From the NCBI RefSeq assembly GCF_058153355.1, contig NZ_CM177019.1: 64,000 nt of DNA; one strand, 5' to 3'. Below are positions 27,573-47,072 of this stretch, one piece after another. Positions within the stretch are counted from its first letter, which is position 1. The number at the start of each line of letters is the position of its first letter. Both the position numbers and the translations under genes were made by a program. The notes beneath the pieces are model-generated. The model searched no databases. It worked only from the letters and a program-made list of their open reading frames with translations, and was not told the DNA's origin.

Positions 27573-27885
27573 ATTTCACCTCATCCGTGTCAGGTTATCG
27601 AAGAGTAGAATTTCAGCAAATTCATGTTACACCGAACGGGTATCATTTCAATGTTTAATAATAATTTCCCCTTATAAAACAACGCTTATAATACATTCGC
27701 AGGTCAGATGATTTATCGGTGTGTTATTTGTTTGAATTTGGTGTTGTGGTTTTCTTTTTTTAACAATCTTCGATCTTCCTTCCACGACTTCCCCTTGCCG
27801 TTTTCAACCGAAAGCGGTATCTTTCACTTGCACCTGCAAAATCAGGTGCCGGGATTGGAACCCCGAAATGTAACCATACTGGCGA

Positions 27886-27910
27886 CACGTGACGCGTCTG
27901 CGTCTTTTTT
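27886..27910 (+). terminator. hairpin plus T-run (GACGCGTCTGCGTC-TTTTTTT)
   Basis: Short GC stem followed by seven T on the plus strand. Confidence 0.35.
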
Positions 27911-28075
27911 TATGTCGCGCGCTTAGCTACACCAAAATTATGGTGGGCTGGGCGGGGGCACCGTAAGGTGCGCCGGTTCCAGTATGGCCGGTAGTTCCAA
28001 CCTCGTTCAGTCCACCACCCATGAGATTGGAACCTCTGGTGGTGGTTTTCAAACCACATACTGGAGGCTGCCTTT

Positions 28076-30250: not shown

Positions 30251-30535
30251 GCTGGAGTCTGACACCGCCTTTTCAGGCCATTTACCTATAAGGAGAACAT
30301 GAATCGATACCGAGGCGGATCCGGACGATCCGGGGGATAACCCGCGCAAGCGGGCGGCTGCTCAGAGAGCACAACCGAAGCCCCACCACACCTCAACGGC
30401 TGCCGCCCCGGCGCTCAGGTATCGTTCGCAGCCCCGACAAAAAAACAGGGGCTATCGGCCTGTGCGCCGGGGAAAGCTGTATCAGTGTTGGTTTTTTGGG
30501 GGATGAGTTTGCGGCAATCATGAAAAGGGGAATGT

Positions 30536-33540: not shown

Positions 33541-33616
33541 TGGCTCCTCTGACTGGACTCGAACCAGTGACATACGGATTAACAGTCCGCCGTTCTACCG
33601 ACTGAACTACAGAGGA
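33541..33616 (-). tRNA. asnT: tRNA-Asn (GUU), island integration target
   Basis: Exact reverse complement of the 76-nt tRNA-Asn at 1688-1763; symbol by synteny with yeeJ and mtfA. Confidence 0.9.
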
Positions 33617-34607: not shown

Positions 34608-34697
34608 GGAGAGATGCCGGAGCGGCTGAACGGACCGGTCTCGAAAACCGGAGTGGGGGCAACTCCACCGGGGGTTCAAATCCCCCTCTCTCCGCCA
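34608..34697 (+). tRNA. serU: tRNA-Ser (CGA)
   Basis: 90-nt GGAGAGATGCCGGAGCGGCTGAACGGACCGGTCTCGAAAACCGG...TCTCCGCCA with long variable arm and CGA anticodon. Confidence 0.85.
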
Positions 34698-34749: not shown

Positions 34750-35775
34750 TTACTTGGAATATTTTCTTGGAATATTTTCAGGTAACGGGACATCAAGTGT
34801 CGGTGAAACTTTAACCTTCCTGTCATAGATTAGCACTTGCCCCTCGGTTTTGTGACCAGAGAAAAGTTGCTTATCCCGACTGCTTCCTTCATAGTCTGAA
34901 ATTCCTTTCGCCTTCAGATCATGAAAGGTGAAGTCGGTTAAAATACCTGAAATTTTGCCTGCGCGATTTCTTGCTTCTACCCACATTTCGTTAAAGCCTT
35001 TGTACATATATCGGTTGCCGTATTGATTGCTGATTACATAGGCGGATGTTGGTAACTGTTTTGCTTTTTCGATCGCCGCCTGTAATCGTGGACTCCATGC
35101 TTTTATCTGTTTTTTCCCTGTTTTCCCTTGCTGGATAAAGATCCCGTCGTTTCCAATCTGCTCCCATTTCAGCGATAACACATCGGAAACCCTCGCTGCA
35201 CACAGATAGGCAATTTCCATTGCGATAAAAACAGGAAGAGGTGCAACGCTTAATACTGCCTGGTATTCTTTGTCGGTTACATATCGTTCCCGGTTTTTGG
35301 CCTTGAATTTACTTACACCTGCACATGGGTTAGCCTTCACGTACCCTCGCTCATACCCCCAACTGTAAACGCGGGACATACTGCTTTTTTCATGGTTGGC
35401 TTGCGTTTTACTCTGTTCCCCTCTCTTGTCCATGTATCGACGGATGTGTTCTGGTTTTATGGAATCTGCCGGCACCTTACCGAATACGGCAAGCAACTTT
35501 TTTTGATGTTGCAGATAATCTTTTTGTGTTCTTGGACTGAGGTCACTGTAATAGGCGCTGGCGAGGAATTTTTCCCACAAGCGACCGAATGTCATTGCAC
35601 GATCGCGATTATTTACAGTTTCCTCATACTTTTTCCATAAAGCAGCTAAACCATCCTTGATGGCGGTTAGTGTTACAGATTCTCTGGATGTTGGTTTCCA
35701 TACATAACTATATTTATTTGGGTATACATTTGGAGGTAATTTTTCGTGTTCAGGATTTTTCCTTCGTCTTCCCAT
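34750..35775 (-). CDS. int: phage tyrosine integrase
   Basis: 341-aa ORF abutting the tRNA-Ser 3' end with an excisionase immediately upstream. Confidence 0.75.
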   Translation of the reverse strand: MGRRRKNPEHEKLPPNVYPNKYSYVWKPTSRESVTLTAIKDGLAALWKKYEETVNNRDRAMTFGRLWEKFLASAYYSDLSPRTQKDYLQHQKKLLAVFGKVPADSIKPEHIRRYMDKRGEQSKTQANHEKSSMSRVYSWGYERGYVKANPCAGVSKFKAKNRERYVTDKEYQAVLSVAPLPVFIAMEIAYLCAARVSDVLSLKWEQIGNDGIFIQQGKTGKKQIKAWSPRLQAAIEKAKQLPTSAYVISNQYGNRYMYKGFNEMWVEARNRAGKISGILTDFTFHDLKAKGISDYEGSSRDKQLFSGHKTEGQVLIYDRKVKVSPTLDVPLPENIPRKYSK

Positions 35776-36036: not shown

Positions 36037-38508
36037 TTAAAAATCAGCCTGACTCGGGATCAGTTTTTGCCAGATTGCTGAAACGTATTTTGCCTGGTAA
36101 CGAGCGTCATCAAGTGCATTATGGCGCTCACCTTCGAATGGAATGGCAGTTCTGGCATCGAAGTCTATGGCTTTCCCCAGCTCAACGATTGTGCGTACAT
36201 CGCGATCGTTGCAGTAGCGCCACGGGCAGGGGATACCCTGTCGTTCGTATGAACGGCGTAAAATCACGTTGTCGAAGTTGGCCCCATTTCCCCAGACCTG
36301 AACAAAAAATTCACCGGAGTTTTCGTCGATAAATTCTCGCAATTGTAACAGTGCATCATCTAACGGGATTTCATCGGTCATAATGGCAGATTGCGCTTCG
36401 CGTGATTGCTTCAGCCACCATTTAATGGTGTCCCGATCAATGACTCCGCCAGCAGTTTCCAGATCGATAGTCTTACTAAATTCCGGTCCCATATCTCCGG
36501 TTTGCGGATCGAAAAATATTGCACCTATTGAGATAATCGGGGCATCAGGATTTTCTCCCATGGTTTCGAGGTCGATCATTAGATGGTCACACGTTCTGCT
36601 GGTGGATGTGATTTCGTGATGACCGTTCACCGTAATTAAGGGATCTGCCGTCTCGCCAGTTTCATTATCGCTGGCGTGGTCCTGAGCGCTGCCAGCATTC
36701 TCCTTGTGTGGATGTTCAGCGCCTTCCATTTCCTCCGGATCATTTTCCTGAACTTCAACCTGATACTCTTCATCGAATGTTTCTTGGTATGTTGCGTCGC
36801 CCATCACCGCGCCACAATCAGGGCAGTTGCCGCCGCCGGTCTGACCGCAGGCGGTGCAGACTTTTTCCACTTCCTGTTGCGCCACTGGTTCAGGCTGTTT
36901 CGTTTCTGGCTCGTTTTGTAACGCATTTGGGCTGTTTTGTTCCGCTTTTTGGTAGTTCCGTTCCGATTCATGCTGGTTCTGGTTCACAGAATCGCGGGTC
37001 TGGCTCCCCTTAACCCATTTCGGATCATTCGGGTCACTAATCCCTTCAACAAATTCACCGCGAGAGGCCGCAAGCAACTTATCGGCGTCAGGCTGGCTGA
37101 TATTGGCTGCCTGCATAATTTTGCTTACTTCGTCAGCTGTAACTTTTACCGGCTCTGGTTGTGCGGTCGTGTCAGATGCACCAGTATTTTGTTGTGAACC
37201 TGAGTATGTACCGTTTTTGCGGGCGAAATATTCTTCTTTCGTGATTTCAGTAGCCCCGGCAGCCAGCGCCTTATCCAGACCAGAAAGTTTGTTTGCGCGA
37301 CCGTATTTTTCGCCATCCTTGTCGGTGAAGAGAAAGTAGAACGGCCCCTCACGCTCTACAGATGGTTTGACTTCCACTTTGCATTCGGTTTTTTCGTTGT
37401 CCGGAATTGCCGTTTCCACTGCATCAGTTTCTGGTACTGGCGACGAGAGAGTATCAGTTGCGCTCTGATTTCTTCCTTCATCTTCAAACACGCCCTTTGT
37501 AGTCAGGTATTCAGTAATGTATTTGTTCAGTGCCACAGGGTCTTTGTGAATGTCGATCGGACGTTCACGGACAAGGCCAAAAATAGTCTGGCGGTCGTAG
37601 CGAAGGGCATCAGGCTGTTTGCGCATTGATGCCGAGATACGCTTCCAGTCTTCGTGGTCGTTGTCGATAACTTCATTTTTTGCCCAGCGATGGATGCTGC
37701 CGTCAATGTTTCCGGCATCCACATCACCAGGCCAGAGAGCGTAGGCCAGTTCGTCATCCAGTGTTTTCCATGTCTGCTTGTATTCGCGATGAGTGGCAGC
37801 AATGACCGGGCTGATTTTTCCTGTTGAATTTTCAGTGTTCTGTTGATTGGCTCTGGCGCGGGCGAGATCAACAACAGACGTGTATTTTCCGGTTTCCTTG
37901 CGTTCACCTTCGCGACGTTTTTTCCAGATGCGCATCTCTGCCTGAATTTCGGGCCATTTGGCACCAGGCTTACATTTATGCTTAACCCACCCGATGGCAT
38001 GCAGCTTAAGCTCCGGATACATGGCGTTAACTTCTGGCATTTTCATCAACGCTTCAACGATATGTCCGTCGAATGTTGCCATGTCTTCCTGCAACAATTC
38101 CTGCGCGCTAATCACCATATCAACGGTGATGTTTTCACATGTGTCGAACTTAACCATGACAGCGTTCTGTACTTCAGGGGCCAGCTTGTCAAAAGTGACG
38201 TTCATCGGATCTGATTCAGTCTCAACCGGGACAAAGGAAGCAGACTCCTCATCCCAGCGGTTTTCCTGCATATATTCAGCATCCCAGGAATCGAGGGCAG
38301 GGCGGGGTATACCGGGTTTATCCTCGCAAACAAGAAATTTATAAGCGCAGTCCTGAGCAGCCGGATAATGTTCCAGGAATTGCCAGTGAAATTTGGCACG
38401 GGCGCGGCGTTCGTCGCCGGCTTCAATGGCAGTGGCTACAGGTTTAGCGCCTTCTTCTTTTGTTGCCTTTTCGTCCGGAATGGCGGCGCAAATAAAGACT
38501 TTACTCAT
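36037..38508 (-). CDS. phage protein with C-terminal DnaQ-like (DEDD) 3'-5' exonuclease domain
   Basis: 823 aa; C-terminus has MIDLETMG and HNALDD exonuclease motifs; central acidic region and a CxxC...CPDC cluster. Confidence 0.55.
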   Translation of the reverse strand: MSKVFICAAIPDEKATKEEGAKPVATAIEAGDERRARAKFHWQFLEHYPAAQDCAYKFLVCEDKPGIPRPALDSWDAEYMQENRWDEESASFVPVETESDPMNVTFDKLAPEVQNAVMVKFDTCENITVDMVISAQELLQEDMATFDGHIVEALMKMPEVNAMYPELKLHAIGWVKHKCKPGAKWPEIQAEMRIWKKRREGERKETGKYTSVVDLARARANQQNTENSTGKISPVIAATHREYKQTWKTLDDELAYALWPGDVDAGNIDGSIHRWAKNEVIDNDHEDWKRISASMRKQPDALRYDRQTIFGLVRERPIDIHKDPVALNKYITEYLTTKGVFEDEGRNQSATDTLSSPVPETDAVETAIPDNEKTECKVEVKPSVEREGPFYFLFTDKDGEKYGRANKLSGLDKALAAGATEITKEEYFARKNGTYSGSQQNTGASDTTAQPEPVKVTADEVSKIMQAANISQPDADKLLAASRGEFVEGISDPNDPKWVKGSQTRDSVNQNQHESERNYQKAEQNSPNALQNEPETKQPEPVAQQEVEKVCTACGQTGGGNCPDCGAVMGDATYQETFDEEYQVEVQENDPEEMEGAEHPHKENAGSAQDHASDNETGETADPLITVNGHHEITSTSRTCDHLMIDLETMGENPDAPIISIGAIFFDPQTGDMGPEFSKTIDLETAGGVIDRDTIKWWLKQSREAQSAIMTDEIPLDDALLQLREFIDENSGEFFVQVWGNGANFDNVILRRSYERQGIPCPWRYCNDRDVRTIVELGKAIDFDARTAIPFEGERHNALDDARYQAKYVSAIWQKLIPSQADF

Positions 38509-38987: not shown

Positions 38988-39545
38988 TCAACAATGAATT
39001 TTGAGTAATTGCTCTACAGTCATATTTTTAATTGCGCCCCGGTTAACAAGAGTCCATCCCTGTTCTTCCAGATAAAACCGGAAAGTCTCCATGGTACAGA
39101 CCCGTGCGCCATCAGGGACGGTTTCGGTGAATCTGATGTTGCCGCGTTCGTCGAAGTGAACAACCAGGGTGCGGCCATCGCCTGGAATTATTTTGTCAGT
39201 GGGTGGGGTGTTATTCTGGCGCAGCTCGGCCTCCATGCGGTCGAACTCAGCAATGTAGGTTTCTTTGAATGCAGCGGCTTTTTTGCCTGTGAAGCCCATC
39301 ACCAGGAAAACGAAGCCGTTTTTGGTGATTTGGTACATTGGGCGTTTTTCGCCTTTGGCGTCGGTATAGGTGACGGGCTTAAAATTAAGCCGGTTAAACT
39401 CCGGCGAGCATTCGAGAGTTTCGATCTTCTGAATAACGTTTTTGTGCATTTTCCGGAAGAACTCCGCAACCGCAACAGACGTAGTGACAGCGCGACCATT
39501 TTCGATGGTTACGTCAGGGTGAGAAAGGGTAAGGATAGTAGCCAT
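38988..39545 (-). CDS. Rha-family phage regulatory protein
   Basis: Start placed at MATILTLSHPDVTIENGRAVTTSVAVAEFF within ORF 38988-39839. Confidence 0.55.
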   Translation of the reverse strand: MATILTLSHPDVTIENGRAVTTSVAVAEFFRKMHKNVIQKIETLECSPEFNRLNFKPVTYTDAKGEKRPMYQITKNGFVFLVMGFTGKKAAAFKETYIAEFDRMEAELRQNNTPPTDKIIPGDGRTLVVHFDERGNIRFTETVPDGARVCTMETFRFYLEEQGWTLVNRGAIKNMTVEQLLKIHC

Positions 39546-40392
39546 GATGGCAGCCTCGATAGTCAGTTTAAATAACTCACCACCAGAGGTAGCAATCTCA
39601 TGGGTGGTGAGACGCACAGGGTTGCTACAACCGGTGACTACCGAAACCGGCCAGCCTTGCGGCTGCCCTGCACGCCCCACCATAATCTGAATGTGGCTGT
39701 GCTTGACGCATAAAAAAACCGCCTGAGCGCGGTTATGCGCAGTAGTCATCGTCGGGGTAGCAATCCCGGCACCCGTTTTATGAGGTGCAGGTGCACTATA
39801 ATTCCACCCGTTCTGGTTTTCAATAGCTACATTCAACATTTTCTCTTTCCTTTCATCACCGAAGTGAACTTTGTTGATGCGGTGCCTGGTGCCTCCAGGT
39901 GACGTTAACCAGTTAACAATTAACGCCGGAATAAGGGATTTTCCTTACTGTTTTAACTGTTCCGCGTGCGCTGAGCCGCATTCACCGCATCACAAAATTC
40001 ACTTTAAAAAGGGCGGACATCAGCCAGCAATTAAACCGATGCCGCCAAAGGTAATCAACATGGGTTGTTGCAGCGGGGTTGTCGCTCAGGCGTATGGTCA
40101 ACCTGACAACCCGGTGGACATTTGCGAGGAACGGAGAACCCCCGCCATACTTACCGCCGCGCCATTTCGCGGATTGCCACAACCGGAAGCGCACGGTCGA
40201 AGAAAATTTAACGACAGGCTATCTATGAACCAGCAACCTCGCCGTGCGCTTTCGCGTTATGCTCTGACTTTTCAGGGAAATATCCTTTCAGTAAACTGTC
40301 AGTGCCGGATACTCACCCGTGTCCGGCGCACCTACTCCACCTTACCCGTGGAGAACTCCTTAATTACCAACCTTAGCTTCGTTGGTTAGCTA

Positions 40393-41201: not shown

Positions 41202-41492
41202 TTAACTGTTTTTGCCTGGATACTGTCTTCGAGAATGCACAATATTTACTACTTCTATGCTTGATGCTGTTACTCGGTAAAGGATGATGTAGTTAGGATG
41301 AGTTACAATTTCACGAAGACCAAGAACTCGCTCGCTTGGAGGATACAGGTAAGGATGCTCTGTGAGCGGCAAAACGGATGTTTCAATTCGAATTTTCATT
41401 CTGCGTGCTGCCGCGGGATTTTCTTTAGCTATGTAGGCTACGATCTGGCGCAAATCATCACGAGCAGATGGTAGCCATAAAACGGGTAACAT
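41202..41492 (-). CDS. RelE/ParE-family toxin
   Basis: 96-aa ORF with RelE/ParE-like composition, overlapping the upstream 64-aa antitoxin ORF. Confidence 0.6.
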   Translation of the reverse strand: MLPVLWLPSARDDLRQIVAYIAKENPAAARRMKIRIETSVLPLTEHPYLYPPSERVLGLREIVTHPNYIILYRVTASSIEVVNIVHSRRQYPGKNS

Positions 41493-41686
41493 TATTCACC
41501 TCTGTGAGTCGCAGCAGCAATTTGGGCAATAATTTGTTCCATTTCCGCCATTACCTCATCATGCGGAATCGCCGGGCGGGGATCCGCGAGGCTTGCTGCT
41601 ACTTTGGCCCGCAGCCATTCGTTGTAACTATTTTCTTGCTCAACTGTCTCAAATTCTGAAACCATTGGGGAAAGGACTGTACTCAT
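41492..41686 (-). CDS. antitoxin partner of the RelE/ParE-family toxin
   Basis: 64-aa ORF immediately upstream of and overlapping the toxin ORF. Confidence 0.5.
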   Translation of the reverse strand: MSTVLSPMVSEFETVEQENSYNEWLRAKVAASLADPRPAIPHDEVMAEMEQIIAQIAAATHRGE

Positions 41687-41705
41687 TTTACATATCTCCT
41701 CTGAT

Positions 41706-42206
41706 TTAGGCGCGACGGCCTTTTTGTGCAGCTAACCACCGCGCAACCGTACGATCCATTGATTCTTTTTTATCTTTCATCTCCTGAAGCATGTGCTCTT
41801 GATCTTCTTTCGGAAAAGCTCTGAACGTATGGATTAAATCTCGTTCCATCGGCTCTACGGCAAACGGTAGTTCATCCTCTGTTTGTTCTGTGTCTGCTGG
41901 TAATGCGACTATGTTATCTTGCTGTGGTTCTCGACAATACATCCTTGCAATTTGCAGCAAATCTGCCATGTCTGGCCTGATTGACTCAGGGGGAACTTTC
42001 AGTAAGCCAGCAAACTTTAGAACAGCCTCAAGGTTTAGTGGGGTTTGACCATTTAGGTAGTGACTTACCGCCCCTTGTGTTGAAAACCCCATAATTTCCG
42101 CCGCACGTTCCTGAGTCAATCCCAACTGAGATTTCTTTGCCATCCAGATTTCTTTCAGTCTTCTGGCGGCGTTTAGGTCGGTGTCTGACAGTGATTTTCT
42201 TTTCAT
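41706..42206 (-). CDS. CI-like HTH prophage repressor
   Basis: Start placed at MKRKSLSDTDLNAARRLKEIW in ORF 41706-42236; divergent from a Cro-like gene across a palindrome-rich intergenic region. Confidence 0.6.
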   Translation of the reverse strand: MKRKSLSDTDLNAARRLKEIWMAKKSQLGLTQERAAEIMGFSTQGAVSHYLNGQTPLNLEAVLKFAGLLKVPPESIRPDMADLLQIARMYCREPQQDNIVALPADTEQTEDELPFAVEPMERDLIHTFRAFPKEDQEHMLQEMKDKKESMDRTVARWLAAQKGRRA

Positions 42207-42244
42207 ACATCCAATTCTAATAAGATTGCTAATCACTTTGAAAT

Positions 42245-42290
42245 AGCATCGCTATTTACTTTTAAAAATAACAGTGCTATTAATTATGCG
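42245..42290. promoter_or_regulatory. cI-cro intergenic operators (AATAGCATCGCTATT and ATAACAGTGCTATTA)
   Basis: Two related palindromes between divergent repressor genes. Confidence 0.45.
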
Positions 42291-42317
42291 TTGGTAACAC
42301 ATCACATAGGGCGGATT

Positions 42318-42581
42318 ATGAATCTTGGAGAATATTTGCATCATTTTCATATAACCCAGAGTTCATTTGCTGAGATTGTTGGCGCATCCCAGGGGATGGT
42401 CAGCCACGTTATAACGGGGCGTGCAAAACTTACAGGAGAAAAAATATTACGTTGGTGTGAAGCAACGGGATGGGTGGTGACCCCACATGAGATTGACAGT
42501 AAAACCTACCCCAACCCAACTGACGGCTTGCCTGCTGAGTTTCAGGCTAACACACAACCATCGGCGGGGGTTGATTCATGA
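42318..42581 (+). CDS. Cro/YdaS-like HTH regulator
   Basis: Start placed at MNLGEYLHHFHITQSSFAEIVGASQGMVSH within ORF 42291-42581. Confidence 0.55.
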   Translation: MNLGEYLHHFHITQSSFAEIVGASQGMVSHVITGRAKLTGEKILRWCEATGWVVTPHEIDSKTYPNPTDGLPAEFQANTQPSAGVDS

Positions 42582-43003
42582 AAACCAAGCATGAGCACAT
42601 CCGTATGGCGATGAATGCATGGGCATATCCTGATGGTGAGAAAGTTCCGGCGGCTGAGATAGCCCGGACTTATTTCGAACTGGGGATGACGTTCCCTGAA
42701 CTGTACGACGACAGCCATCCGGAAGCCCTGGCTCGCAATACCCAGAAAATTTTCCGCTGGATAGAGAAAGACACCCCTGATGCTGTTAAAAAAATTCAGG
42801 CGTTGTTACCAGCGATCGAAAAGGCAATGCCGCCTCCGCTGGTGGCCCGAATGCGCAGCCACAGTTCAGCTTATTTTCGGGAGCTGGTGGAGACGCGGGA
42901 GCGACTGGTGAGAGACGCTGATGATTTTGTCGCAGTGGCAATCGCCGGTTTCAATCAGATGAACCGTGGTGGCCCGGCAGGAAATGCTGTGGCAGTACAT
43001 TGA
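42578..43003 (+). CDS. CII/YdaT-like early regulatory protein
   Basis: 141-aa ORF immediately after the Cro-like gene, overlapping start/stop. Confidence 0.35.
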   Translation: MKTKHEHIRMAMNAWAYPDGEKVPAAEIARTYFELGMTFPELYDDSHPEALARNTQKIFRWIEKDTPDAVKKIQALLPAIEKAMPPPLVARMRSHSSAYFRELVETRERLVRDADDFVAVAIAGFNQMNRGGPAGNAVAVH

Positions 43004-43074
43004 CTGACAATAGCCATATCGAATTGCTTCCGGCAACTCGTGAGTAAAAAGATTCGGTATCAGAAGAGGTGAGT

Positions 43075-44127
43075 ATGGCTAACGCCTGGCTCAGATTATG
43101 GCATGACATGCCAAATGACCCTAAGTGGCGAACAATTGCCAGGGTGTCAGGGCAGACAATTGCAACAGTGATGGCTGTGTATATCCACCTTCTGGTGAGC
43201 GCGTCACGAAATGTCACGACATGTCACGGCGTGTCACTACGTGGTCACATTGATGTCACGACGGAAGATTTAGCAAGTGCGCTTGATGTGACGGAAGAAG
43301 TAATTGATTCAATTTTACAGGCAATGCAGGGGCGGGTACTTGATGGAGATTTAATCTCTGGATGGGAAAAACGCCAGGTACTGAAAGAGGACAATGGCAA
43401 CGTTTCACAAACCGCGAAATCCCCGGCAGAGCGCAAGAGAGCGCAGCGCGAGAGGGAAAAATTACGAAAACAGAATGAGGGGGGGCATGACGAGTCACGC
43501 ATATGTCACGACATGTCACGACGAGTCACGACAGATAAAGATACAGATAAAGATACAGATAAAGAATTAAACCCCACACATAACGCGCGCGTGCGCGAGA
43601 GTGCTCCGACCAGTGAGTCGAATGGCGTGCTGTTGCAGGCAGCGGAACCTGATTACCTGGAAGGCCTGAGCGAACCCATCGGGAAATTTCCGATGACTGA
43701 TGGCTGGCATCCGTCGCCGGATTTTCGACGGCGGGCAGCTCTGTGGGGAGTAGCTCTGCCGGAGCCGGAATTTACACCAGCTGAACTTGCCGCCTTCCGG
43801 GACTACTGGGCAGCGGAGGGTAAAGTTTTCACGCAGGTTCAGTGGGAGCAGAAATTCGCCCGTCACGTAAATCACGTCAGGGCGCAGGTTAAACCAGTCA
43901 GCAAGGGGGTGAGCCATGCAGCAGCACCAGGCGGCACCGCATCACGGGCAGTTCAGGAAATTCGGGCAGCACGTGAGCAGTGGGAACGTGAAAACGGATT
44001 TATCAGCGACGGAAACGGCGTGGAAGCTGTGGGAACTCATGGGGGAGGTTTATTCGAACCGCTGGACCCGGAAGAACGGGGCCGCACCTTCGAAGCTCTG
44101 GATTGCACAGATTGGCGTGATGACTGA
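43075..44127 (+). CDS. phage replication initiation protein (O-like) with internal iterons
   Basis: Start at ATG preceded by GAGGTG; coding sequence contains GTCACG repeat clusters and GATAAAGATACA tandem repeats. Confidence 0.5.
43190..43570 (+). repeat. candidate phage origin iterons (GTCACG clusters; tandem GATAAAGATACA)
   Basis: Two clusters of GTCACG-type repeats plus three tandem 12-mers inside the O-like gene. Confidence 0.5.
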
Positions 44128-44581
44128 GCAGCAAATCCGACAGGTCTGCCGCCAGTGCATGGACCGCTGCCGGGCGGGTGAAACATGGCCTCCGGACCTG
44201 GCTGAGTTTGTGGCGCTGATTTCGGAAAGCGGGGCCAATCCATTCGGTCTGACGGTGGATGCCGTGATGGAGGAGTACCGCCGCTGGCGCAATGAGTCCT
44301 GGCGATACGACGGAAGCGATAAATACCCGTGGTCTCAGCCTGTGCTGTATCACATTTGCCTCGAAATGCGGGCAAAAGGGGTTGAGCGTCAGATGACCGA
44401 AGGGGAGTTAAAACGACTTGCAGAACGGCAACTGACGAAATGGGCAAAACATGTTGGTATGGGTCTGAGTGTTCCACCCGTCCGGCGGCAACTGGCAGCC
44501 CCCAAACGTCCTGCGGGACCAACACCAATTGAGTTGCTGAAACAGGAGTATGAACGCCGGAAGGCAGCTGGTTTTGTATGA
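44120..44581 (+). CDS. phage replication-associated protein (P-like position)
   Basis: Start placed at [13 protein letters not shown] overlapping the O-like stop; assigned by position only. Confidence 0.3.
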
Positions 44582-44611
44582 ATTGTGAAGGTGATTTTTT
44601 CAGGAGGATTT

Positions 44612-45034
44612 ATGGCGAAACCTTTTACTCCCGAACAGCGGGAAGAACTGAAGACGCGAATTGTGGAACTCGTGCATCAGGACGGTCGGGTCACGATTCG
44701 GCAGTTGTCAGATGAAACAGGTATCAGTCGTGCGTCTGTCGGTCGCTTATGCATGGAACTGGTCGCAAGTGGTGATGTATATAATTCTGGCTACGGCTTA
44801 TTCCCGTCTGAACAGGCTCGCAAGGACTGGCAAAGCGCCCGCAAAAAACTCTCGAGAGTAAAGGTGAGGAAACCGGTTGTTGTTGATCCGGACCTTATCT
44901 GGTCATTACCAGACGGAGAAATACGTCGTTACAACAGACGACAGAACATAATCTGTCGCGAGTGCCGGAATAGTGAAGTTATGCAGCGTGTACTGGCTTT
45001 CTATCAGGGGAATTTTCAGGAGGCGGCGCAGTGA
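44612..45034 (+). CDS. hypothetical phage protein
   Basis: Start placed at MAKPFTPEQ preceded by AGGAGG. Confidence 0.4.
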   Translation: MAKPFTPEQREELKTRIVELVHQDGRVTIRQLSDETGISRASVGRLCMELVASGDVYNSGYGLFPSEQARKDWQSARKKLSRVKVRKPVVVDPDLIWSLPDGEIRRYNRRQNIICRECRNSEVMQRVLAFYQGNFQEAAQ

Positions 45035-45231
45035 GCAGGATTGACTACCAGGAATTGGCTGCTGCTAATGCTTTCCTGGCGGATGTGCGGGCGGTAGCGT
45101 TTAACGACCTTTGCGCGGCGTTTGTCAGGCACGCAAAAGTTGCAGGGCTGGATGATGGCGATACCGTAACGCTTAAGGAAGCGACAGATTCGCTGCTGCA
45201 TTGTGCGGAACAGCTTCGTACATCTGAATAA
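45031..45231 (+). CDS. hypothetical phage protein
   Basis: 66-aa ORF coupled to the upstream gene. Confidence 0.3.
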   Translation: MSRIDYQELAAANAFLADVRAVAFNDLCAAFVRHAKVAGLDDGDTVTLKEATDSLLHCAEQLRTSE

Positions 45232-46772: not shown

Positions 46773-47072
46773 TTATAAGAAATCGGTTTCATAACTTTGC
46801 CCACCATGATAGATACCGACAATAAAGACTTTTCTGCCATCAACGGCAAAAGCAATAATCGTTCTGTGGCGGAAATGAGTTACCCGCATTCCCTGGCGAA
46901 TATCATCGCGTTTATTGCCCCGATGCGGGAATGTAGAAAACCCATCAAGATAATCAAGAAGCGCATTGGCATAATTGTCAGCAATAACGCTCCCTGCTTT
47001 CTCCGTTATATATCTGTGCAGGTCGATTATCTGTTGTTCGGCCTCCGGAGTAATGATGACTTCATATGTCAT
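46773..47072 (-). CDS. ParE/RelE-family toxin
   Basis: 99-aa ORF MTYEVIITPEAEQQIIDLHRYI, typical ParE N-terminus. Confidence 0.7.
   Translation of the reverse strand: MTYEVIITPEAEQQIIDLHRYITEKAGSVIADNYANALLDYLDGFSTFPHRGNKRDDIRQGMRVTHFRHRTIIAFAVDGRKVFIVGIYHGGQSYETDFL

Follow-up and report, generated by a model that had tools for sequence, protein, structure and literature searches.

A predicted replication origin inside the initiator gene of a lambdoid prophage

The DNA considered here, referred to below as the window, is a stretch of 64,000 nucleotides from contig NZ_CM177019.1 of the NCBI RefSeq assembly GCF_058153355.1. One prophage gene in the window, located at 43075-44127 on the + strand (the reading frame is open from 43069) and coding for a protein of 350 amino acids counted from the ATG, matches the protein families of phage replication initiators (PHROG 1408/3729, ‘replication initiation protein’). 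Two arrays of short iterons with the consensus core (T)GTCACG(A) are embedded in this initiator gene, and the second of these is directly followed by an A+T-rich tract. We predict, with a probability that we put at roughly 80%, that this region is the theta-type replication origin of the prophage, contained within the gene for its own initiator. A candidate phage origin had been proposed at this place by a sequence-only reading of the same DNA, a proposal that is now supported by selection at the DNA level, by co-variation of the two arrays and by a position and polarity like those in phage lambda. An origin that consists of iterons and an A+T-rich tract inside an initiator gene is of a textbook kind; what differs here is the family of the initiator and the iteron. 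Literature searches that covered TGTCACG iterons, iterons combined with a replisome organiser, and ydaU/ydaV replication retrieved no description of this origin.

Array 1 (43203-43260, + strand) consists of six direct copies of (T)GTCAC(G) with a period of 10-11 bp: the complete GTCACG starts at 43203, 43213, 43223 and 43255, and the shorter GTCAC starts at 43233 and 43244, which corresponds to core spacings of 10, 10, 10, 11 and 11 bp. A lone inverted core (GTGACG at 43288-43293, that is, CGTCAC on the - strand) is located 28 bp downstream of the array. Array 2 (43484-43530, + strand; array 1 lies about 230-290 bp upstream of it) comprises four intact copies, with GTCACG starting at 43494, 43505, 43515 and 43525 (spacings of 11, 10 and 10 bp), and a decayed fifth copy, GGCATGAC at 43484-43491, in the place of which most relatives have the intact TGTCACGA. 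In terms of the gene, array 2 spans nucleotides 410-456 of 1053 (39.8-43.2% of the gene length). The repeats are thus direct, with a period of 10-11 bp and a conserved core of 6-8 bp separated by variable spacers, and because the spacers vary, the palindromes that can be discerned at the repeat junctions are not conserved. The clustering is well beyond chance: on either strand of the window, three or more GTCAC per 60 nucleotides occur only in the two arrays, with six in array 1 and four to five in array 2, whereas 200 first-order Markov simulations of 64 kb never yielded more than three; furthermore, all four exact + strand matches of TGTCACGAC in the window fall inside the arrays. The two GTCACG-type clusters that the sequence-only reading had placed inside the coding sequence of a replication gene are accordingly where it had located them, within a single open reading frame (ORF).

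Directly 3′ of array 2 lies the A+T-rich tract (43531-43575, + strand), which is purine-rich on the coding strand and consists of three copies of ACAGATAAAGAT followed by AATTAAACC. The repeat finder TRF reported this tandem 12-mer with 2.9 copies at 43531-43565 in its own register. The three tandem units described earlier are present inside the ORF, although in the register used in that description the third is imperfect, with GATAAAGATACA occurring twice and then GATAAAGAATTA. The segment 43531-43570 is 77.5% A+T and, by nearest-neighbour energy, is the least stable 40-mer within 42250-44600, its instability placing it at the 99.8th percentile for the window as a whole; the tract 43531-43575 is therefore a candidate DNA-unwinding element. 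Of 10 initiator genes compared, which are related or analogous to this one, 9 have a matching tract after the last iteron, and a version of the tract is also present in lambda. It usually begins with (C/T)AGATAAAGA, or with a close or GA-rich variant of it, directly after the last repeat of array 2.

Relatives of the gene are common. It is present (at least 80%) in 657 of 5,426 complete E. coli genomes, and relatives are encoded in 539 IMG/VR stretches. For the analysis of selection, we used 46 distinct homologues drawn from IMG/VR loci and phage records (the first scan for related loci gave 89-96% identity), whereas co-variation was assessed in distant homologues found by tblastn with the N-terminal domain of the initiator against phage records. 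Conservation in homologous phages had been named in the sequence-only reading as the point on which its proposal would stand or fall; the arrays are kept in the 46 close relatives as well as in phages of Aeromonas and Pseudomonas. Among the 46 homologues, 15% of the alignment columns vary in the cores and 59% in the spacers within the arrays, and third codon positions vary at 15% inside the cores compared to 87% elsewhere in the N-terminal half of the gene. Owing to the period of 10-11 bp, the cores occupy all three reading frames and no amino acid repeat results. A complementary comparison involved three phages, namely E. coli phage Evi, Aeromonas pAEv1818 and Pseudomonas phita81A, the N-terminal regions of which are 66-88% identical to the window protein. 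Where a degenerate amino acid is invariant in the three phages, the codon is identical in 11 of 11 cases wholly inside the cores but in only 10 of 64 cases outside (Fisher p = 5e-7 for the contrast, partly overlapping codons included). These patterns indicate that selection acts on the DNA of the cores and not on the protein alone. Copy numbers change by whole repeats: array 1 has six copies in most E. coli-type relatives and four in the Evi-type, Aeromonas and Pseudomonas phages, the difference being a 21-bp in-frame indel, and relatives have three to five copies in array 2 and two or three of the 12-mer. The protein thus tolerates change at these sites, whereas the cores are retained. The inverted core downstream of array 1 is kept as GTGAC in Evi and in the Aeromonas and Pseudomonas phages.

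In more distant homologues, the core differs from subfamily to subfamily but changes alike in both arrays, and the two-array layout is maintained. In the window, the GTCACG cores of arrays 1 and 2 occupy gene nucleotides 129-181 and 420-451, respectively. The corresponding positions are 130-182 and 401-431 for the core GCAACGC of Ralstonia phage Hennie (L088, 39% amino acid identity), 126-148 and 337-367 for CGAACGC of Manatee Spring phage (L086, 49% amino acid identity), and 142-178 and 358-384 for GTAGAC of Ralstonia phage Raharianne (L094:1534-2370). In Raharianne, all 7 sites in the 2.65-kb locus belong to the two arrays, each of which includes the succession direct-direct-inverted, and at a place equivalent to 43288-43293 both Raharianne and Hennie contain their own cores in inverted form. 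Given that one array encodes a folded hairpin and the other a disordered linker (see below), their joint change is best explained by a single binding protein with subfamily-specific recognition, for which the product of the gene itself is the obvious candidate. Other homologues have a clear array 2 only, namely L087 (AACGC), L090 (GCAACG) and the Enterococcus phage phiEf11 (GTAACG), and Microcystis phage MACPNOA1 (L095) has a GTCAC-type array 2 without array 1, its last repeat being succeeded by a G-rich run in place of an A/purine-rich tract. Upstream of the GTAGAC-type initiator gene of Raharianne, at about 1195-1500 of L094, there is a frameshifted remnant of a Hennie-type N-terminal domain which retains a GCAACG array 1, in which two inverted copies accompany three or four direct ones, and which looks like the trace of a replication-module replacement.

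The initiator protein combines two parts of different provenance. Its C-terminal part contains a DnaT-like domain (amino acids 205-271, Pfam PF17948, E 3.8e-18), and amino acids 201-270 align to the C-terminal domain of DnaT that binds single-stranded DNA (PDB 6aep/4ou6, E ~1e-20). This domain is all that the protein shares with E. coli DnaT (primosomal protein I): against the NCBIfam equivalog model NF002770, it scores 96.8 bits compared to a cut-off of 201, so that orthology with DnaT was rejected, and judging by these matches it is a phage protein with a borrowed DnaT-like domain. The N-terminal domain appears to be remotely related to phage replisome organisers of the SPP1 G38P type. The family profile aligns with the phiEf11 replisome organiser in hhalign with a probability of 85% (E 6e-6, 92 columns); the match to the curated model TIGR01714 (phage_rep_org_N) extends over the whole domain at E 0.0079 and 16.4 bits, below the cut-off of 49.8; and PF09681 is matched, weakly, by 1 of 49 members of the initiator family. 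In the AlphaFold2 model, the N-terminal domain (amino acids ~1-100) is predicted confidently over amino acids ~10-100 (predicted local distance difference test 90-98), followed by a helix (117-140) and a predicted disordered linker (~141-210). In a Foldseek search of the full-length model against PDB, every match had E > 0.4; the list of these non-significant matches is headed by winged-helix DNA-binding proteins, which is suggestive only, and the domain is probably a winged helix. In the same model, array 1 encodes a β-hairpin between two helices (about amino acids 44-62, with the hairpin at 47-56), modelled with somewhat lower confidence. Array 2 codes for amino acids 137-152 at the start of the linker and, together with the tract, for amino acids ~137-167 of this low-confidence region, where disorder would relax the constraint on the protein, as in lambda O. 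Two other ORFs overlap the arrays, 43394-43570 in the +1 frame and 43245-43519 on the - strand; both are regarded as spurious, and of the former the databases contain no more than a frameshifted tail in a few entries.

The closest parallel to this arrangement is the lambda origin. The iterons of ori-lambda are located at 38.7-48% of gene O, and array 2 with the A+T-rich tract lies at 40-47% of the initiator gene; in both cases, the iterons are followed on the promoter-distal side, with the same polarity, by an A-rich tract that is purine-rich on the coding strand (ACACAAAAGACACTATTACAAAAGAAAAAAGAAAAG in lambda), and the site encodes an interdomain linker. The gene order is also shared, with a helicase loader of the PF06992 family directly downstream, and so is the inheritance of the N-terminal half together with the iterons as a specificity module and of the C-terminal half together with the loader. 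By contrast, the initiator itself, with its DnaT-like C-terminal domain, has no detectable similarity to lambda O: there is no match to Pfam Phage_rep_O, BLASTP gives E = 2.4 and hhalign a probability of 0.1%, on which grounds homology with lambda O was ruled out. The designation ‘O-like’ from the sequence-only reading thus holds for the gene position and the inferred role but not for descent. Likewise, the lambda layout is mirrored by array 2 and the tract, whereas lambda has one array and here a second one is found upstream, in the part of the gene that encodes the folded domain; moreover, the lambda iterons are dyad-symmetric units of ~19 bp and those in the window are short direct repeats.

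Other phages provide further precedents. G38P of phage SPP1 binds the repeats of oriL that are embedded in gene 38 beside an A+T-rich unwinding element, and a 356-bp fragment is sufficient in vitro (PMC5737612, PMC6316719). The prophage gene resembles this system in having direct repeats and an A+T-rich element inside the gene for the organiser, with binding by its own product predicted here from sequence. It differs from SPP1-type initiators (TIGR01714/PF09681) in the C-terminal domain, which is DnaT-like and not of the Phg_2220_C type (PF09524, found in 1 of 49 aligned relatives), and in the loader, which is P-like and not G39P/DnaC-like; in addition, the second G38P site of SPP1, oriR, is ~13 kb away, whereas both arrays here lie within the same gene. 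Distinct iterons are likewise present in the initiator genes of lambda, P22 and phage L; the repeats in the middle of gene 18 of P22 and phage L, six imprecise ones of 11 bp in the latter phage, have been read as the origin from the sequence (PMC8022706). P22 and phage L are, like this prophage, lambdoid and have sequence-specific short repeats in mid initiator gene (gene 18); however, the initiator family and the repeat are different, the partner is a DnaB-type helicase (gene 12) and no second array has been reported. In phiEf11, an iteron array is followed by the AGATAAAGA tract, as in the window, but array 1 is missing.

The A+T-rich tract also marks the boundary between two sequence modules. 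Matches of the window to Evi, Tritos and other phages, which cover the N-terminal half of the gene, run up to 43566, whereas matches to the ydaU/ydaV region of Rac-SA53, to PPompW prophages and to others, which cover the C-terminal half, begin at 43535-43561, such that the two sets share only 43535-43566, inside the tract. These comparisons indicate that the tract is a mosaic recombination junction and, because the breakpoint lies inside it, that the N-terminal domain, both arrays and the tract are inherited as a single specificity module; the DnaT-like C-terminal half, in turn, appears to be co-inherited with the P-like loader. In Rac-SA53 and relatives, the C-terminal half and the P-like gene are 90-96% identical at the DNA level to those in the window, and the join lies in the same A+T-rich tract, whereas the N-terminal domain of Rac-type YdaU (the Rac origin is oriJ) is DUF1376 rather than of the replisome-organiser type. 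The Rac-SA53 ydaU gene (L002 2925-2985) has no GTCACG arrays but contains, just upstream of the A+T joint, a 9-bp inverted repeat, GTTCAAACA / TGTTTGAAC, which may serve as the corresponding recognition element in that module.

Two observations concern the immediate surroundings of this joint. Just to the right of the tract, at the start of the C-terminal half, 43583-43598 is an alternating purine-pyrimidine, GC-rich near-palindrome, ACGCGCGCGTGCGCGA, at which relatives have a 6-bp indel and which recalls the palindrome to the right of the A+T-rich region of lambda. Furthermore, many E. coli database entries for the initiator protein are labelled ‘partial’ and end at 150-240 amino acids; evidently, draft assemblies break at or just past the arrays and the tract, probably due to the presence of several prophages per genome that share the module of the C-terminal half.

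How the origin would work is our inference, from the binding of the initiator to the unwinding of the DNA, the loading of the helicase and the part that array 1 plays. The N-terminal domain would bind the cores (T)GTCACG(A) which, at a spacing of 10-11 bp, are presented on a single face of the DNA, one for each helical turn. The initiator would then oligomerise on array 2, thereby straining and opening the adjacent A-rich tract (43531-43575); the DnaT-like domain may hold the single-stranded DNA and would act with the P-like loader in delivering the host DnaB to the opened DNA. Rightward early transcription through the cro-like and cII-like genes would cross the initiator gene and the origin, as at ori-lambda. 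Array 1 probably binds the same protein and could either enlarge or loop the complex or serve in autoregulation or copy control.

A more ambitious version of this scheme, which we put forward only tentatively, is that of a bipartite origin in which the two co-evolving arrays are both bound by the initiator and array 1 has a distinct and required role (looping, handcuffing or autoregulation). This role of array 1 would be shared throughout a large branch of proteobacterial replisome organisers in which at least four specificities are represented, and the near-universal (C/T)AGATAAAGA tract would be both the shared element for unwinding and loading and the recombination joint at which modules are swapped. 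Array 1 being overprinted on the hairpin of the DNA-binding domain, the binding site would dictate part of the amino acid sequence of that domain. The overprinted additional array and the shared AGATAAAGA joint might be the mildly surprising parts of the system.

Several points weigh against the prediction of an origin or against parts of it. Our literature searches retrieved no experiment on binding or origin activity for any member of this initiator family, and the N-terminal domain falls below the threshold of the curated replisome-organiser models and has no significant structural match. The departures from lambda in the form of the iterons and in the number of arrays count in the same direction. 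Array 1 is absent or weak in L087, L090 and phiEf11 and hence may be dispensable for initiation. Finally, co-variation of arrays that lie in or near the initiator gene cannot by itself exclude a different binding protein.

Among the alternatives to an origin that includes both arrays, the one that fares best, albeit rather unlikely in our estimate, confines the origin to array 2 and the tract and regards array 1 either as an autoregulatory or copy-control site (acting by titration, handcuffing or as a roadblock to the transcription of the initiator gene itself) or as a tolerated duplicate that gene conversion keeps matched to array 2. Lambda and phiEf11 indeed make do with a single mid-gene array, no clear array 1 is seen in L087 and L090, the distance between the arrays is not helically phased among relatives, and in the GTCACG group inverted copies accompany array 1 but not array 2. 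Nevertheless, the synonymous sites of array 1 are frozen across E. coli, Aeromonas and Pseudomonas phages, and the array is found at the same place in four specificity groups, which argues for a function of some kind.

It is considerably less probable that the repeats are sites for another protein or process, such as an operator for the cII/YdaT-like protein or a repressor, partition, packaging or a host factor, with no origin involved. The location of the arrays in an early regulatory and replication region that encodes several DNA-binding proteins is compatible with such a role. However, the core tracks the subfamily of the initiator N-terminal domain across hosts in which the flanking regulators differ, the arrays come together with an unstable A-rich tract where two domains of a replication protein meet, the rest of the window contains no such array, and the same layout is an origin in well-studied precedents (PMC5737612, PMC8022706).

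The view that the repeats lack any cis function and are a by-product of low-complexity, slippage-prone coding that is kept by selection on the protein can draw on indels that resemble slippage (array 1, 21 bp; array 2, 10-22 bp; tract, 12 bp) and on the conserved amino acid motif SRNVTRGH.DVT but is hardly credible, given that the core is read in all three frames without producing an amino acid repeat, that synonymous positions in the cores are conserved (11/11 vs. 10/64, as above), that the coding sequences of a folded hairpin and of a disordered linker share one core, which differs between subfamilies in both places alike, and that the RNA fold is unexceptional (z = -1.6 for 43480-43600, with no Rfam match in the region).

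If the prediction of an origin inside the initiator gene is correct, a replication module that is common, yet whose origin has no description that we found in the literature, would acquire a testable handle in the form of a predicted origin of ~380 bp with a simple iteron consensus, and the relatives concerned include prophages found alongside Shiga toxin (Stx)-converting phages. The iteron consensus could be used as a marker by which replication and incompatibility specificity are typed. The system would also be a compact one for the study of DNA opening by an initiator that lacks an AAA+ domain and uses short sites spaced one per turn, and it would provide a natural example of a cis-element overprinted on coding sequence and of a module boundary that coincides with the A+T-rich tract of an origin.

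From ~34.6 kb onward, the window is a lambdoid prophage. A tRNA-Ser(CGA) gene (34608-34697) is directly followed by the integrase gene (34750-35775) and is likely to be the attachment site. A RecE-like exonuclease is encoded at 36037-38508. At the immunity region, the - strand carries genes for a ParE toxin (41202-41492), a PaaA2 antitoxin (41492-41686) and a helix-turn-helix (HTH) repressor-like protein of 176 amino acids (41706-42236), which together form a unit similar to paaR2-paaA2-parE2 (41202-42236); a second ParE-family ORF is present at 46773-47072 on the - strand. On the + strand, a cro-like HTH gene (42291-42581) and a cII-like/YdaT gene (42578-43003) precede the initiator gene, which is followed by the P-like helicase loader (44120-44581, + strand, the start being the one annotated in RefSeq for a homologue with 97% identity), by a ren-like gene (44585-45034) and, further to the right, by genes for RusA, Q, a methyltransferase and the large terminase. 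The order of the cro-like, cII/YdaT-like, initiator, P-like and ren-like genes is thus that of lambda cro-cII-O-P-ren.

The loader is identified by matches to Pfam Phage_lambda_P (PF06992, E 4e-16) and PHROG 109 (‘P-like helicase loader’), by 24% identity to lambda P (E 7e-7), and by the name of its RefSeq homologue, ‘replication protein P’. Its frame is open from 43916, 204 nucleotides upstream of 44120, and thus overlaps the 3′ end of the initiator gene (to 44127). Profile matches reach into this upstream extension, starting from residue 19 for PHROG 109, 42 for phrog_33198 and 61 for the Pfam P family, and a single family, PHROG 15931 (482 positions), has matches in both the initiator and the P-like ORF. 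P may therefore truly begin within the initiator gene; alternatively, fused forms may occur.

A scan of 41500-45200 for promoters and terminators gave nothing above the shuffled expectation and no promoter-like site in the initiator gene. A DnaA-box-like 9-mer, ATATACACA, with one mismatch to TTATNCACA, is located at 43176-43184 on the - strand, 20 bp upstream of array 1; it is kept in Evi but not in the Aeromonas and Pseudomonas homologues and is probably a chance occurrence.

Several RNA features are scattered over the remainder of the window. Two tRNA-Asn(GTT) genes are found in opposite orientation at 1688-1763 and 33541-33616, and matches to Rfam group II intron domains on the + strand (RF01999, 22917-23033; RF00029, 24590-24667) indicate such an intron upstream of the prophage. 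The pair formed by the isrK small RNA and the C4 antisense RNA occurs twice, in opposite orientations, at 27830-28022 (+ strand) and 39600-39788 (- strand), the latter inside an ORF with Rha and Ash domains (38988-39839, - strand) in the early-left region of the prophage. An EFASI RNA is present at 30299-30428.

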